Source of the DNA: Escherichia phage vB_EcoM_WFbE185
Sequence record: MK373778.1
Length of the DNA: 64,000 nt
Direction: 5' to 3' (one strand)
The position numbers were made by a program, and so were the translations under genes. Below the pieces are notes generated by a model. It did no database searches. It had not been told where the DNA came from and saw only the letters and a list, made by a program, of their open reading frames with translations. This document shows positions 4,015-44,246 of the stretch, piece after piece. Every line of letters begins with the position of its first letter. Position 1 is the first letter of the stretch.

Positions 4015-5013
4015 TTATGATACTAATTCAATCCATGCAGGACGCAGAACATCTTGCACCATTCGGACTAATTCTTTCTTAACAAGATTCGGATTATCGG
4101 ATGATGTTAATACAATACCTTCACGAGAAGTTTCTTCCAGAATATCTTGAACAGTCAATCCCATCACTTTGCCAAAATCTTTTGGCGTTACAGTCCCAAT
4201 CTTAGAAATCACATTATTAACACGGTTTAATGTAACATAACAAGCTAGGACATCAAGCAAGTTTTTGTCAATTTCGGTTAATGGAACCTGAGTTTTAATA
4301 GGCTTATCAGACTTTTTCTTTTCACTGAATTTAGAGTTCTTGCACTTAATAGCTACACGAGTACCGTTTGGCAGCCATTTAGGGAAACAAGGCTTCAGAA
4401 CATAACCTTCTGCTGTATTATCGCCAATAACATTAGCATCAAATACACAATTATTTGCTTCTACAAGGTCTTCTGACGCAGTAGCATTATAAGCGGCTAA
4501 GACGGAATCAAGGTCATTTGGAATCGCGATAAGAGCATCGAATGTTCCACGACCGAGCATTGGTGCCATTTTAAAACCGAATTCATTACAGAAATCTTGC
4601 ATTTCGTAATCGGTCAAATACGTATTATCACCACTTTCTGTATTGATAAGGATATCGAACACATAAAAATCTTTTTCACCGTAGTCAACACCTTTCTGGA
4701 TTCCACCACCAGCGAATTCACCAAAGACCTGATATGATACAGCTCGAGAACTACCCATTACTTCTTGAACGTTTTTAATAGCCTTATCATACTTCTTGAG
4801 TACAATTTCATAACCATAAAAATCTTCTGCTGGAAGAATAGGGCCTGTGCGCTTGGCGCATGTGACGTTGTCACGTTCAATTATTAACGAGAAGTTAGTC
4901 CCATGGATTTTCTCACGTGCTACCCAAACACCAGTAGTCAAACCATTAGTGTAGAGTTTTTCAATAAACTTAGAGTTGTAGTGGTTTTCAAGACTGCTGT
5001 ATTTCTTAAACAT
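4015..5013 (-). CDS. rnlB: RNA ligase 2 (RnlB)
   Basis: 332 aa; nucleotidyltransferase motif I KIHGTN (Lys-x-His-Gly-x-Asn); T4 position downstream of gene 24. Confidence 0.85.
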
Positions 5014-5676: not shown

Positions 5677-7095
5677 TTATGGATATGTATAGATGATACC
5701 AGTTTCCAAAGCAGTTTTATGGATGACGTATCCATTACGTGATTCTTGAACATCAACTTCTGGATAGTCTTTCATCATCTTCTGAAGAGTGTAACGATGC
5801 AGGTAGTATTTACTATCTGCATCTTCAGTTTTCCAATCTTTACCTTCTTCAGTCATTTTTTGTATTTCATCCATAACCCACCAACCGCACCAGATGTAAG
5901 CTGAAGTACGATGTGGAAGAGGATGAACATAAGGTAATTCACCTTCTGGTTCTGGAGCAACTTTATCGGTTACCTGAACTTGTCCTTCTGCTGTAATAGT
6001 TTTGCTATCATAATCAGTAGCAGTAACGACGGCAGTCACTTCAATAGTTTGACTTCCAATAGATGAGGTATCAACGGTATATACATTAGTTGACCCTTCT
6101 ACAGGAGAAGAATCTTTCTTCCATGAATAAGCAATTTGTGCTTCTTCTGGTGCACCAGTAACATTAGCTGTAAATGTAGCCGAAGCATCTTGTTGAACAT
6201 TAATAGAAGGAGGAGTCAATGTAACCTGTGGATTCATTGTCTTCTTATTAACCGTTAATGATACTTCATTCGAAGTAACTTCCTTTGCATCATAATCTGT
6301 CGCAGTTACTTGGGCTACACATTTAATTCTTTTTACTCCACTTGTAGTTGGAGTATAGCTAAATGTAGAGTTAGTTTCTCCACCAATCTGTGAATCATCT
6401 ACATACCACTGATACGTAGCAGACGCTCCAACCGGTTGAGAAGCTAAGGCGGCAGTAAATTGAACTGGGGTTCCAATTACTCCGGCTGAAGGACTATTGG
6501 GAGTTACTGCCAACGTAGTTGTCTGCGTCTTTTTATTAACAGTCAGTGACACTTCATTAGAAGTAACGCTTAGTGCGTCATAATCTGTTGCGGTTACTTG
6601 AGCCACACACTTAATTCTTTTTACCCCGCTTTCGGCAGGAGTGTAATTGAATGTAGCGTTAGTTGCTTCGCCAACAGGAGAATCATCTACATACCATTGA
6701 TAAGTAGCGTTTGCGCCTGATGGCTGCGAAGCTAAAGCGGCAGTAAATTCAATAGCTGTTCCGATTACTCCAGCGTCAGGGCTATTAGGAGTTACAGCTA
6801 AGGTAGTCGTTTGTGTCTTATTTTGAACTGTGATAGTTGTAGAAGCTTCTGCTGTTTCAGCTTCAGCTTCTGGAACTGTATTTGTTGCAACTACTTTAAT
6901 AGACTTTTGACCTGCAGGTCCTTTTAACACATAATCAAAAGTTGCTTCAGCTCCATCTTGCGAAACATCATCTACAGTCCAAGCATATGTAATAGTTCCA
7001 CCTCCAGTTTCACCACTGGGAGTAGCAGTAAACTGCTGAGTCTGATCTATAACTCCAGTAGGTGTTTTAGGAGTTATATCAACTGTAAAAGCCAT
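5677..7095 (-). CDS. hoc: highly immunogenic outer capsid protein Hoc with four Ig-like domains
   Basis: 472 aa; N-terminus MAFTVDITPKTPTGVID and C-terminal capsid-binding region match T4 Hoc; an extra near-identical 96-aa Ig-like domain is present. Confidence 0.85.
   Translation of the reverse strand: MAFTVDITPKTPTGVIDQTQQFTATPSGETGGGTITYAWTVDDVSQDGAEATFDYVLKGPAGQKSIKVVATNTVPEAEAETAEASTTITVQNKTQTTTLAVTPNSPDAGVIGTAIEFTAALASQPSGANATYQWYVDDSPVGEATNATFNYTPAESGVKRIKCVAQVTATDYDALSVTSNEVSLTVNKKTQTTTLAVTPNSPSAGVIGTPVQFTAALASQPVGASATYQWYVDDSQIGGETNSTFSYTPTTSGVKRIKCVAQVTATDYDAKEVTSNEVSLTVNKKTMNPQVTLTPPSINVQQDASATFTANVTGAPEEAQIAYSWKKDSSPVEGSTNVYTVDTSSIGSQTIEVTAVVTATDYDSKTITAEGQVQVTDKVAPEPEGELPYVHPLPHRTSAYIWCGWWVMDEIQKMTEEGKDWKTEDADSKYYLHRYTLQKMMKDYPEVDVQESRNGYVIHKTALETGIIYTYP
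6241..6816 (-). repeat. hoc: in-frame tandem duplication (2 x 288 bp) encoding two near-identical Ig-like domains of Hoc
   Basis: Protein units aa 94-189 and 190-285 both run TQTTTLAVTPNSP...VKRIKCVAQVTATDYDA...SNEVSLTVNKK with about 85% identity. Confidence 0.8.
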
Positions 7096-7104
7096 AAGTT
7101 ATCC

Positions 7105-7773
7105 TTATTTTAATGTTACGAAAGAAGAATTACGAGTTTCACGAATTAGAACTGATCCATCGCGATTAATATAATAAATTAAGCTAAATAATGTTTGGTG
7201 AGCAGAAGCGTGCACAAAACTGGTTGGGCGAGATTTCCAATCTGGGGTTTCGTCTATCCATTGATAAATCCACCAAGGAACAGTAACATATCCTGGGCCT
7301 TTGCCTAATTTAATGAGTGTAGGACTAAAATTTTCAGGCAGAACAAATTTTACTTCTTTATTTACCTCTGGCTCAGGCTCTTTTTCAGATTCAACAACCT
7401 GAGTAATTGCTTCTTCGAATTTATCATGGTCGAATTCTTTTTCTTGTTCGACAACTTCTAATACTTCAACTTGTTCTGTTGGAGAATCAAACAACAGAAT
7501 AGCTTCTTCTTTAACTTCTTCGTTGGTGAAATTAACACCGTCCACATCATCTGCGGCAGTAATTAAATCGGTGATAGATAATCCATCAGTTTCAGGTAAT
7601 GGTTCATCAGCCAGTGCGTTAAGAGCTTCTTCGATATCAATAACAATATTATCGAATGATTTTGTTTTCTTAACACTAATGCCAAATTGTTCCGCATATT
7701 CAAACAGTTTAGCTTTGGCTTCCTTTTTATCAGAAAGAGCACGTAACTCTTCAATATAGTCTTTATCGATCAT
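7105..7773 (-). CDS. inh: Inh (hoc.1) prohead protease inhibitor-like protein
   Basis: 222-aa acidic protein at the T4 inh position between hoc and uvsW; assignment is by synteny. Confidence 0.6.
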   Translation of the reverse strand: MIDKDYIEELRALSDKKEAKAKLFEYAEQFGISVKKTKSFDNIVIDIEEALNALADEPLPETDGLSITDLITAADDVDGVNFTNEEVKEEAILLFDSPTEQVEVLEVVEQEKEFDHDKFEEAITQVVESEKEPEPEVNKEVKFVLPENFSPTLIKLGKGPGYVTVPWWIYQWIDETPDWKSRPTSFVHASAHQTLFSLIYYINRDGSVLIRETRNSSFVTLK

Positions 7774-7786
7774 GATATTTCCTCAT

Positions 7787-7794
7787 TATAAATA
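7787..7794 (+). promoter_or_regulatory. late promoter (TATAAATA) for uvsW
   Basis: Exact TATAAATA 29 nt upstream of the uvsW ATG in the divergent inh/uvsW intergenic region. Confidence 0.65.
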
Positions 7795-7823
7795 TAACTA
7801 TATTTATTACATGGTAATTTGAC

Positions 7824-9338
7824 ATGACTGACATTAAAGTACATTTTCATGATTTTAGTCACGTGCGCATTGAATGCGACGAAAGTACGTTTTACGAACT
7901 TCGTGACTTTTTTAGCTTTGAAGCTGACGGGTATAAATTTAACCCAAAATATCGCTATGGGCAATGGGATGGTAGAATTCGACTTTTAGATTACAATCGT
8001 TTGTTACCATATGGACTTGTAGGACAAATAAAAAAGTTCTGTAACAATATGAGTTATTCTGTATGGATTGACCATAAAATCTTTGAGACCGAAGACCTTA
8101 CCAGGGAAGATTTTGACGCATGGCTTTCTAAACAAGAAATTTATTCAGGCAACGCCAAAATCGAACCGCATTGGTATCAAAAAGATGCAGTATATGAAGG
8201 ACTAGTTAATCGTCGTCGAATTTTAAACCTTCCGACATCAGCAGGTAAATCACTAATCCAAGCACTTTTAGCTCGGTATTATCTAGAGAACTATGAAGGT
8301 AAAATTCTCATTATCGTCCCTACAACAGCATTGACAACCCAGATGGCTAATGATTTTGTTGATTATCGCTTGTTTAGTCATTCGATGATTAAGAAAATTG
8401 GCGGTGGCGCTGATAAAGCGGACAAATCTAAAAATGACGCTCCAATTATTGTTGGCACATGGCAAACTGTAGTTAAGCAGCCTAAAGAATGGTTCTCTCA
8501 GTTCGGTATGATGATGAATGATGAATGCCACTTAGCAACAGGCAAAAGTATTTCTTCAATCATCTCAGGATTAAATAATTGCATGTTTAAATTCGGTTTA
8601 TCTGGCTCATTAAGAGACGGAAAAGCCAATGTAATGCAGTACGTAGGTATGTTCGGTGAAATCTTCCGTCCTGTTAGCACGTCTAAATTAATGGAAGATG
8701 GACAGGTAACTGAGCTTAAGATTAATAGTATTTTCCTTCGTTATCCGGACGAATTCACCACCAAATTAAAAGGTAAAACATACCAAGAAGAAGTTAAAAT
8801 TATTACCGGACTAAAACGTCGTACAAAGTGGATTGCTCAACTTTCAGTAAAATTGGCTAAGAAAGACGAGAACGCCTTTGTAATGTTTAAACACGTTACA
8901 CACGGTAAAGAAATATTTGAAGCTATTAAAGAGCTTGGATACGAAAAAGTTTATTACGTATCAGGTGAAGTTGATACTGAAACACGTAACGCGCTTAAAG
9001 TCATGGCAGAAAATGGTAAAGGCATTATTATTGTTGCATCATATGGAGTATTCTCTACTGGTATTTCAGTCAAGAATCTTCATCATGTTATTTTTGCCCA
9101 TGGTGTTAAATCAAAAATTATCGTACTTCAAACCGTAGGTCGCGTGCTTCGTAAGCATGGTTCTAAAGCTGTTGCTACAGTTTGGGATCTCATCGACGAT
9201 GCAGGTGTAAAACCTAAATCATTAAATACTAAAAAGAAGTATACTCATCTTAATTACTTGTTAAAACACGGTATTGATCGTATCCAACGTTACGCTGATG
9301 AGAAATTTAACTATGTAATGAAAACAATTAATTTATAA
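7824..9338 (+). CDS. uvsW: UvsW DNA/RNA helicase
   Basis: 504 aa; Walker A-like GKS and SF2 helicase motifs; late promoter TATAAATA at 7787-7794. Confidence 0.9.
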   Translation: MTDIKVHFHDFSHVRIECDESTFYELRDFFSFEADGYKFNPKYRYGQWDGRIRLLDYNRLLPYGLVGQIKKFCNNMSYSVWIDHKIFETEDLTREDFDAWLSKQEIYSGNAKIEPHWYQKDAVYEGLVNRRRILNLPTSAGKSLIQALLARYYLENYEGKILIIVPTTALTTQMANDFVDYRLFSHSMIKKIGGGADKADKSKNDAPIIVGTWQTVVKQPKEWFSQFGMMMNDECHLATGKSISSIISGLNNCMFKFGLSGSLRDGKANVMQYVGMFGEIFRPVSTSKLMEDGQVTELKINSIFLRYPDEFTTKLKGKTYQEEVKIITGLKRRTKWIAQLSVKLAKKDENAFVMFKHVTHGKEIFEAIKELGYEKVYYVSGEVDTETRNALKVMAENGKGIIIVASYGVFSTGISVKNLHHVIFAHGVKSKIIVLQTVGRVLRKHGSKAVATVWDLIDDAGVKPKSLNTKKKYTHLNYLLKHGIDRIQRYADEKFNYVMKTINL

Positions 9339-29909: not shown

Positions 29910-30624
29910 AAGTTTTCCATTTTCTACCTAGTTGCCAGTCCGGGCTGTTTAATCTAGGATCGTTTATATCGGTGGTAGAAGACTTTTTACCTGAAATATG
30001 GATTAACCATTTTCTAGATTTAGCTGCTTTAGAATAATTTTCTTTAGCCTTATCACTTCTAACCTTGCCTTTATTGGATTTGGATATTTTATTACCCCAT
30101 TCAATAATAGACTCTTCACTCATAAAATCTTTAACATTCTTACCATACATAGGATTATTTTCGCCTTTAAACGTATTACCATTTTTAAGACGGGTTTCTT
30201 TAGATTTAATCCCATGACCTGGCAATTTCTTACCTTTAATCCAAGGAACCACACCATTATTAAATCGTTCTTTTTGCGATTTAGAAATTTTTGCAGATGT
30301 TTCTGGGCTTGAATTAACATTAATACGATTTTCATTAATATAATCCCAGCCTCCTTCTCCGCCAGGTTTCAAATTGTAATTAGTATCCAGTTTTATAAAT
30401 TCTTTAGTTACTAATTTGGCTTCTAAATCATATGCTTCTTGTTTAGTTTCAAATATTTTTATGATTTCTTTATTAAAAGAATCTTTACCATATTTTGATT
30501 CAGCATTTTTAAAAGCTGTACCGGAACCTAAATAAGAATCATTTTCTTTTAAGGTCTTATGAACCCCTATATAAATTTTGTTGTTAACCAAACATGTGGT
30601 TTTATACACAGTGTATTTTTCCAT
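29902..30624 (-). CDS. free-standing GIY-YIG homing endonuclease (Seg-like)
   Basis: GIY-YIG variant motif VYKTTCLVNNKIYIGVH at N-terminus; Lys-rich C-terminal DNA-binding region; ATG MEKYTVYK with GAGGTGA RBS (track start is GTG). Confidence 0.8.
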   Translation of the reverse strand: MEKYTVYKTTCLVNNKIYIGVHKTLKENDSYLGSGTAFKNAESKYGKDSFNKEIIKIFETKQEAYDLEAKLVTKEFIKLDTNYNLKPGGEGGWDYINENRINVNSSPETSAKISKSQKERFNNGVVPWIKGKKLPGHGIKSKETRLKNGNTFKGENNPMYGKNVKDFMSEESIIEWGNKISKSNKGKVRSDKAKENYSKAAKSRKWLIHISGKKSSTTDINDPRLNSPDWQLGRKWKTYE

Positions 30625-43570: not shown

Positions 43571-44246
43571 AGTTCCATCCAGGCCATTTTGAAGATTTAA
43601 GTCTATACGTAACTAGAGATGCAGAAATATTAAAAACATCTGAAACTTCTGTGCATGATGAGTATTTTATACCATCAATAATTATAGGTTTTTGTTTTTT
43701 AATAGTTCTTTCTTTAGAATGCGGCTTTGAATTTGCTATTCTAAGAGCTTCTTTGGTTGAATCAGGCATCGGCTTATTCGTTTTTCGCCCTTTTCGGACT
43801 TTACTCAAAGCTAATTTATGAGCTTCAGATAGTTTCCTACCCTTATTAGGGGATGGTATTTTTCTTTCTAATCTGGTTTTAGATACTTTAGCCTTAGTCT
43901 CTTCAGATCTAGGTTTCCCTATTTTAGAAAGTGAAATAGCCCTTTTAGCTTCATCACTTTGTTTTTTACCAGGGCCACCTTTACCACCTGGAACCAGGTT
44001 ATAAGTATCAGTTCGCAAAACAAAATCTTCATTAACCAATTCTGCTTCTTTTTTATAGGCGTCCTTGGCATTATCATATTCATAAAGAACTTCAGTATAA
44101 AAATTTTTTAGCCCGTATTTAGCTTTGGCCGCTAATATAGCGCGACCAGACCCAATATACCAATCTTTCTCTTTATGTTTTTTGTGTACACCTATATAAA
44201 TTTTACCATTTATTTTATTGGTAGTTTTATACACAACGTATTTCAT
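43563..44246 (-). CDS. free-standing GIY-YIG homing endonuclease (Seg-like), inserted between genes 33 and 59
   Basis: 227 aa; GIY-YIG variant motif VVYKTTNKINGKIYIGVH; Lys/Arg-rich C-terminal region; overlaps the gp59 start by 8 nt. Confidence 0.8.
   Translation of the reverse strand: MKYVVYKTTNKINGKIYIGVHKKHKEKDWYIGSGRAILAAKAKYGLKNFYTEVLYEYDNAKDAYKKEAELVNEDFVLRTDTYNLVPGGKGGPGKKQSDEAKRAISLSKIGKPRSEETKAKVSKTRLERKIPSPNKGRKLSEAHKLALSKVRKGRKTNKPMPDSTKEALRIANSKPHSKERTIKKQKPIIIDGIKYSSCTEVSDVFNISASLVTYRLKSSKWPGWNYD

Follow-up and report, generated by a model that had tools for sequence, protein, structure and literature searches.

Hoc has been described as a conserved capsid-binding domain joined to a variable string of Ig domains (Fokine 2023, PMC10385173). 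The capsid-binding domain of T4 Hoc is made up of residues 281-376, while the Hoc homologue of Serratia phage Muldoon has 1174 aa and 10 Ig domains (PMC10385173). The Muldoon protein shares the conserved C-terminal capsid anchor and the variable Ig string with the proteins considered here, is distant from them in sequence and has many more domains. A 'variant Hoc' of 283 aa, consisting of two Ig domains and the C-terminal domain, was reported for phage PNJ-9 (Fu et al. 2024, PMC11853027). Domain 2 of this two-Ig Hoc was implicated in fucose/MUC2 binding by co-IP data from one laboratory, and MUC2 binding reportedly required residues S183, L184 and T185 (PMC11853027). A literature search found no paper on a 472-aa allele or on hoc domain duplication as such.

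The window analyzed here is a stretch of 64,000 nucleotides from Escherichia phage vB_EcoM_WFbE185 (MK373778.1). A 472-aa ORF in this window matched T4 Hoc in the PDB (5vf3_Z, 376 aa) with an E value of 8e-219 in a phmmer search. The alignment fell into two stretches, aa 1-109 with T4 residues 1-109 and aa 189-472 with T4 residues 93-376, the latter scoring 573 bits, indicating that the WFbE185 protein is T4 Hoc plus exactly one 96-aa unit. T4 Hoc (NP_049793, 376 aa; PDB 5VF3, 8T1X and others) is encoded at the same gene position (inh / 24.3) but has one domain-2 unit, whereas WFbE185 Hoc has two (+96 aa). The features of the locus are as follows.

5677..7095, minus strand: hoc, encoding the 472-aa highly immunogenic outer capsid (head decoration) protein, plus stop codon; from the ORF list and the phmmer match to T4 Hoc.
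6820..7095, minus strand: Ig-like domain 1, aa 1-92; aligns to T4 Hoc 1-92, all-beta with block pLDDT values of 82-93 in an AlphaFold2 (AF2) model.
6532..6819, minus strand: Ig-like domain 2 copy a, aa 93-188, the unit without a T4 counterpart; repeat copy, with Pfam PKD/Ig_2 matches.
6244..6531, minus strand: Ig-like domain 2 copy b, aa 189-284, the unit closest to the single domain 2 of T4; contains the best Pfam PKD stretch, aa 195-253.
5968..6243, minus strand: Ig-like domain 3, aa 285-376; aligns to T4 Hoc 189-280, with Pfam Ig_3 / I-set at aa 289-373.
5680..5967, minus strand: C-terminal capsid-binding domain, aa 377-472; near-identical to T4 Hoc 281-376.
6541..6558, minus strand: NEVSLT motif at the end of copy a, aa 180-185; from the translation, with the numbering N180-T185 as in PNJ-9.
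6253..6270, minus strand: second NEVSLT motif, at the end of copy b, aa 276-281; from the translation and a motif scan.
7105..7773, minus strand: inh (prohead protease inhibitor), the upstream neighbor of hoc; 67% aa identity to T4 Inh, the syntenic moskry CDS being annotated as inhibitor of prohead protease.

Pfam matches in Hoc were to PKD, Ig_2, Ig_3 and I-set. The AF2 model, built on 33 Hoc sequences and having a mean pLDDT of 83.9, contained four all-beta modules, mostly with pLDDT values of >90, and copies a and b exhibited the same strand pattern at an offset of 96 aa. Ig-like domain 3 was all-beta, with block pLDDT values of 88-95 up to approximately aa 370 and of 80 for aa 371-380. 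The C-terminal domain was modeled with low confidence (pLDDT 41-68); almost every column of this domain was invariant among the 33 Hoc sequences. Domain 1 shared 32-36 identical residues with the domain-2 units over ∼90 aligned positions. The best Foldseek matches in the PDB were strings of four Ig domains, namely, Dscam1 Ig1-4, Sidekick-2 Ig1-4 and ICAM-5 D1-D4; whole-model TM-scores were low (0.15-0.33) due to differences in inter-domain geometry, and only the nature of these matches, not the superposition, was used. An initial annotation of this DNA, made without database searches, had described the ORF as a Hoc with four Ig-like domains, one more than in T4, and on this point phmmer, Pfam, AF2 and Foldseek were in agreement. 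It had also given T4 Hoc as 376 aa with three Ig domains, as was found in the alignment to 5vf3_Z; the objection named there, a T4 Hoc with the same four domains, does not apply.

Head-to-tail copies of 288 nt were located at 6239-6526 and 6527-6814 by two repeat finders, one of which was TRF; the TRF repeat extended over 6239-6819 with a period of 288, 2.0 copies, no indels and a score of 684. In codon register, the units occupy 6532-6819 (aa 93-188) and 6244-6531 (aa 189-284), giving a repeat of approximately 6244-6819. The starting point of a tandem repeat can be set anywhere in its period, and these coordinates are within 2 to 3 nt of the 6241-6816 given in the initial annotation, whose in-frame tandem copy of 2 × 288 nt (96 aa) was thereby confirmed. 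Identity between copies a and b was 80/96 aa (83%, as compared to an initial estimate of ∼85%) and 219/288 nt (76%). At other in-frame offsets in hoc, the best self-identity was 44% over 288 nt, and the binomial probability of 219 matches arising by chance was ∼3e-58. Tandem repeats are prone to mis-assembly, and a repeat falsely expanded during assembly or sequencing, a possibility named in the initial annotation, had to be considered. However, 69 of the 288 positions differ between the copies, so that reads place uniquely, and the identical protein and 1419-nt genes recurred in numerous isolates and metagenomes that had been sequenced independently. The repeat is real, as the initial annotation had supposed, and the probability of an artifact is negligible.

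The order of genes around hoc was rnlB-24.2-24.3-hoc-inh-uvsW, as in T4 and moskry, with hoc in the conserved T-even position between inh and 24.3 / rnlB and flanked by ORFs matching rnlB (76% aa), 24.2, 24.3 and inh (67% aa) of T4. The hoc region was 97% nt collinear with that of the Mosigvirus moskry, and a 24-kb stretch of the window was 98% identical to the Mosigvirus-type phages vB_Eco_NicPhage and vB_EcoM_G53. The backbone of PNJ-9, a T4-like coliphage, was 95.5% identical to the window over 24 kb. Levels of nucleotide identity to T4 were 74 to 77% for the flanking rnlB (4015-5013), inh (7105-7773) and uvsW (7824-9338) genes but 87.5% for hoc, which was 93 to 95% identical to the hoc genes of Tequatrovirus phages (teqskov, PST). 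This disparity between hoc and its flanks suggests an exchange of the hoc allele between lineages of Mosigvirus and Tequatrovirus. In T4, the segE gene for a homing endonuclease lies between inh and uvsW, where the window has only a 50-nt spacer (7774-7823); SegE-like coding sequences with 42 to 43% aa identity were detected elsewhere in the window (30256-30609 and 43995-44246).

The WFbE185 protein was found to be already present in GenBank as an exact match (QBQ77693.1, Escherichia phage vB_EcoM_WFbE185), within a 90% identity cluster of 167 members that includes RB30 Hoc (AAM52483.1). Proteins of 472 aa with the same a-b array were encoded by RB30, RB27, ime09, Sf23, moskry, teqskov and WilhelmHis; these proteins had 90 to 100% aa identity to WFbE185 Hoc, belonged to the same 90% cluster and exhibited no difference of substance. 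A repeat_region is annotated within hoc in the moskry record. The distribution of lengths was determined for the best 120 clusters (90% identity) matching WFbE185 Hoc.

376 aa: 80 clusters.
472 aa: 29 clusters.
568 aa: 7 clusters.
377, 468, 567 and 570 aa: 1 cluster each.

A domain-2 HMM counted 3, 4 or 5 Ig-type units, in step with length. At the genome level, 658 phage records matched WFbE185 hoc, and a systematic sample of 60 records, spaced evenly down this ranking, was analyzed. A single-piece hoc of 1419 to 1425 nt was present in 22 of the 60 records (including RB27, ime09, Sf23 and WilhelmHis), a gene of ∼1131 nt (range, 1117 to 1134) in 29 (including T4, T2, RB14 and JS09) and a gene of 852 nt in one. 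The four-Ig allele is found in about one-third or more of the T4-type phages sequenced. The fourth domain is not novel, given the deposited protein and the occurrence of the 472-aa form in at least 22 of the 60 sampled records; with the allele deposited and variation in Ig number published, the arrangement is ordinary and already catalogued.

Several other forms of hoc were observed in these searches. The 852-nt match was located at 138754-139605 of Escherichia phage BYEP01 (OR757453.1) and consisted of 283 codons plus stop, the same size as the two-Ig 'variant Hoc', indicating that PNJ-9 is not alone in having the short form. PNJ-9 Hoc has a single domain-2 unit and lacks domain 3, whereas WFbE185 Hoc has domain 3 and two domain-2 units. 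Yersinia phage PST (KF208315) and Shigella phage SHFML-11 (NC_030953) have a 1420-nt hoc with one extra base, and only a truncated hoc CDS of 930 nt is annotated in these records; the extra base is either a sequencing frameshift or evidence of a genuine pseudogene of a four-Ig hoc. Five-Ig proteins (567-570 aa), with domain-2 units in the order a-b-c, were found in the isolated phages UGKSEcP1 and UGKSEcP2 and in metagenomes. In UGKSEcP1 and UGKSEcP2 (568 and 570 aa, respectively), domain 1, domain 3 and the C-terminal domain were as in WFbE185 and the first two domain-2 units were copies a and b, a third and more diverged unit c being extra. Units 2 and 3 of the 567-aa five-Ig form were much more diverged, with HMM scores of 86 and 72 as compared to ∼170-200. 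A locus search of IMG/VR returned 21 loci, few of them close, in which hoc homologues matched over 840 to 1653 nt with 33 to 62% identity. In distant T4-like IMG/VR genomes (37 to 56% identity), the hoc matches spanned 840, ∼1410 and 1653 nt, indicating that variation in Ig number recurs well outside the T-even core. Two of these genomes have four-domain Hoc proteins with 48 to 50% identity.

The initial annotation had attributed the fourth domain to a recent duplication. A recent, lineage-specific and in-frame tandem duplication of Ig domain 2 in WFbE185 would explain why the units are exactly tandem, in frame, equal in length and free of indels and why the reference phage T4 has one unit only. 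The divergence of the copies, however, argues against such an event. Identities at the three codon positions were 86%, 90% and 52%, and the Nei-Gojobori estimates were 1.38 for dS and 0.12 for dN, with a dN/dS ratio of 0.09; both copies have evidently been kept by purifying selection. For domain 1 and for domain 3 plus the C-terminal domain, dS between WFbE185 and T4 hoc was 0.33 to 0.34. Hence, with a dS of 1.38 against one of ∼0.3, divergence between the two copies exceeds that of the orthologous parts of hoc in these phages several-fold. The PST (KF208315) gene was left out of the codon analysis, as it is 1420 nt long and frameshifted in the record.

Comparisons between phages led to the same view of the age of the repeat. 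WFbE185 copy a had nucleotide identities of 98.6%, 86% and 81% to copy a of moskry, RB27 and PYps32T, respectively, while copy b had identities of 97.6% and 90% to copy b of moskry and RB27 and of 90.6% and 96.5% to the single units of T4 and JS09. All a-versus-b comparisons, whether within or between phages, gave values of 74 to 79%. A nearest-neighbor analysis was performed on 164 domain-2 units from 120 protein clusters, the neighbor being sought in another protein. Among these 164 units, there was no instance of copy a of a four-Ig protein having copy b of another four-Ig protein as its nearest neighbor, or the reverse. The neighbors of first-position units in four-Ig proteins were single units or the first units of four- or five-Ig proteins, the only exception being a unit that was closest to the middle unit of a five-Ig form, and second-position units paired with later-position units. 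Within-protein identity between copies a and b ranged from 56 to 85% in 31 four-Ig clusters, none exceeding 85%, and 20 nucleotide sites were consistently a- or b-specific in eight four-Ig genes from two genera. As the copies group by position and not by genome, the arrangement is old and shared, and the a-b tandem is older than the split between the hoc alleles that Tequatrovirus and Mosigvirus now carry. With an a-b pair that is orthologous across genomes of these two genera, a maximum a-b identity of 85% in the 31 clusters, third codon positions only 52% identical and the 472-aa form already present in RB30, RB27 and ime09, a recent duplication is very improbable, and the description of the repeat as recent was abandoned.

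The repeat had also been proposed as a hotspot for expansion and contraction. Copies a and b of four-Ig alleles were compared with the domain-2 units of three-Ig alleles, four of which could be matched to near-identical four-Ig alleles. The breakpoints, in nucleotides of the unit, and the numbers of mismatches to copies a and b on either side were as follows.

JS09 (three-Ig) versus moskry: breakpoint at nt 24-32; a/b mismatches of 0/5 on the 5′ side and 61/2 on the 3′ side.
AV116 (three-Ig) versus WFbE185: breakpoint at nt 12-17; a/b mismatches of 0/3 on the 5′ side and 65/2 on the 3′ side.
teqhad (three-Ig) versus ime09: breakpoint at nt 207-232; a/b mismatches of 2/49 on the 5′ side and 14/4 on the 3′ side.
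PYPS2T (three-Ig) versus ime09: breakpoint at nt 252-275; a/b mismatches of 1/61 on the 5′ side and 2/0 on the 3′ side.

The units of JS09, AV116, PYPS2T and teqhad were single-crossover a/b chimeras differing at 1 to 6 of 288 nt from the nearest four-Ig units, and their flanks were 96 to 100% (domain 1) and 95 to 98% (domain 3 plus the C-terminal domain) identical to those of the nearest four-Ig alleles. These four three-Ig alleles look like the products of unequal crossover in near-identical four-Ig alleles.

A more general polarity, in which all three-Ig alleles, including that of T4, would be 5′ a-to-3′ b contractions of a four-Ig array, looked supported when 10 three-Ig and 8 four-Ig genes were compared as DNA but was contradicted by 80 clusters of 376-aa Hoc, for which the best fit was b-to-a in 41 and a-to-b in 18, with 21 ties. 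Due to the failure of this test, only the pairs of near-identical alleles were kept as evidence of unequal crossover. The general polarity was also at odds with the distribution of a tail motif, ALS (unit aa 82-84; 6568-6576 in copy a and 6280-6288 in copy b). Of the copy-a units, 57% had this motif, as did 49% of the single units, some of which (e.g., that of T4) have a b-like body; none of the 30 copy-b units had it. Such a pattern is more than one unequal crossover can explain and suggests gene conversion or a b variant missing from the sample. The T4 domain-2 unit is itself a mosaic, with nt 1-60 as in RB27 copy a, a b-like body and an ALS tail. Its first 60 nt were identical to RB27 copy a and differed from every copy b at 7 or more positions, while nt 61-240 had 5 to 8 mismatches to the closest b copies and 41 to 47 to any copy a; the number of mismatches was 5 to 14 for all b copies except the mosaic b copy of ime09. 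The chimera counts and the ALS distribution together indicated that domain-2 units are mosaic in both directions. Recombination has evidently changed the number of domain-2 copies among T-even phages, and the likely causes are recombination between hoc alleles and occasional unequal crossing-over within the domain-2 array. The hotspot proposal was partly supported, in that two-, three-, four- and five-Ig forms coexist and some three-Ig alleles are a/b chimeras. It was weakened by mosaics running both ways and by the short exact identity of the two copies in register, at most 17 nt, a length at which homologous slippage would hardly be frequent.

As an alternative to the duplication of one sequence, the a-b pair may have arisen by out-of-register recombination between co-infecting phages carrying a-type and b-type alleles that had already diverged, in which case the copies would have differed from the outset. 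By diagnostic residues, the single-copy 376-aa Hoc was a-type in 53 of 80 clusters and b-type in 19, including T4; T-even phages recombine freely; the values of 87.5% for hoc and 74 to 77% for its flanks relative to T4 point to allele exchange between genera; and single units are mosaic both ways. These observations are all in keeping with such an origin, but the order of the units is less so. Diagnostic residues identified the first unit as copy a in 29 of 30 four-Ig proteins and the second as copy b in 22 of 30, the rest being mostly partial; the five-Ig forms continue this order as a-b-c; and none of the 30 copy-b units has the ALS tail. The fixed a-b order, its continuation in the five-Ig forms and the absence of ALS from copy b favor a single old origin of the array over repeated formation. 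Joining of diverged alleles is, therefore, a possible but not the favored route to the pair, and the data may fit both this origin and an ancient duplication followed by losses. The reading that covers the results as a whole is very probably correct, namely, that WFbE185 is a Mosigvirus-type T-even phage whose hoc is a widespread four-Ig allele, in which an old a-b tandem is under purifying selection and the number of domain-2 units is varied by recombination.

The C-terminal 96 residues of WFbE185 Hoc are near-identical to the T4 capsid-binding domain, and hence this protein should decorate the capsid as does that of T4. By homology to T4, the C-terminal domain would anchor one Hoc monomer at the center of each gp23* hexamer, and the extra Ig module would be expected to lengthen the published 180-Å T4 fiber by about one module, or some 4 nm. 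Such a longer fiber may affect mucus adhesion and the spacing of epitopes, as the initial annotation had put forward. Domain 2 of PNJ-9 Hoc ends in N180-E-V-S-L-T185, and the same motif occurs twice in WFbE185 Hoc. The domain implicated in fucose/MUC2 binding would, on this comparison, be doubled in the four-Ig protein, which may present two copies of the putative MUC2 site.

As a discovery, the four-Ig protein of WFbE185 is of little importance, since the protein, the allele and variation in Ig number were already on record. Its practical relevance is to the use of T4-type phages in therapy or as display and vaccine scaffolds. Phages that are otherwise alike differ in the length class of Hoc (283, 376, 472 or 568 aa), and assumptions based on the 376-aa protein of T4 concerning fiber length, epitope spacing, antibody cross-reactivity and mucin-binding sites need to be checked for each phage. 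There is also a modest evolutionary point in that the domain-2 copies are old and selectively maintained and that the three-Ig form of T4 need not be ancestral. A tentative extension, to which we attach rather less than even weight, is that T-even phages maintain a standing polymorphism in fiber length (two to five Ig domains) through recurrent unequal recombination within an old domain-2 array and inter-genus exchange, with the three-Ig form of T4 being a mosaic or contracted derivative of a four-Ig ancestor and with mucus selecting on length or valency. If this were true, mucus selection on fiber length or domain-2 valency would hold several length classes at high frequency.
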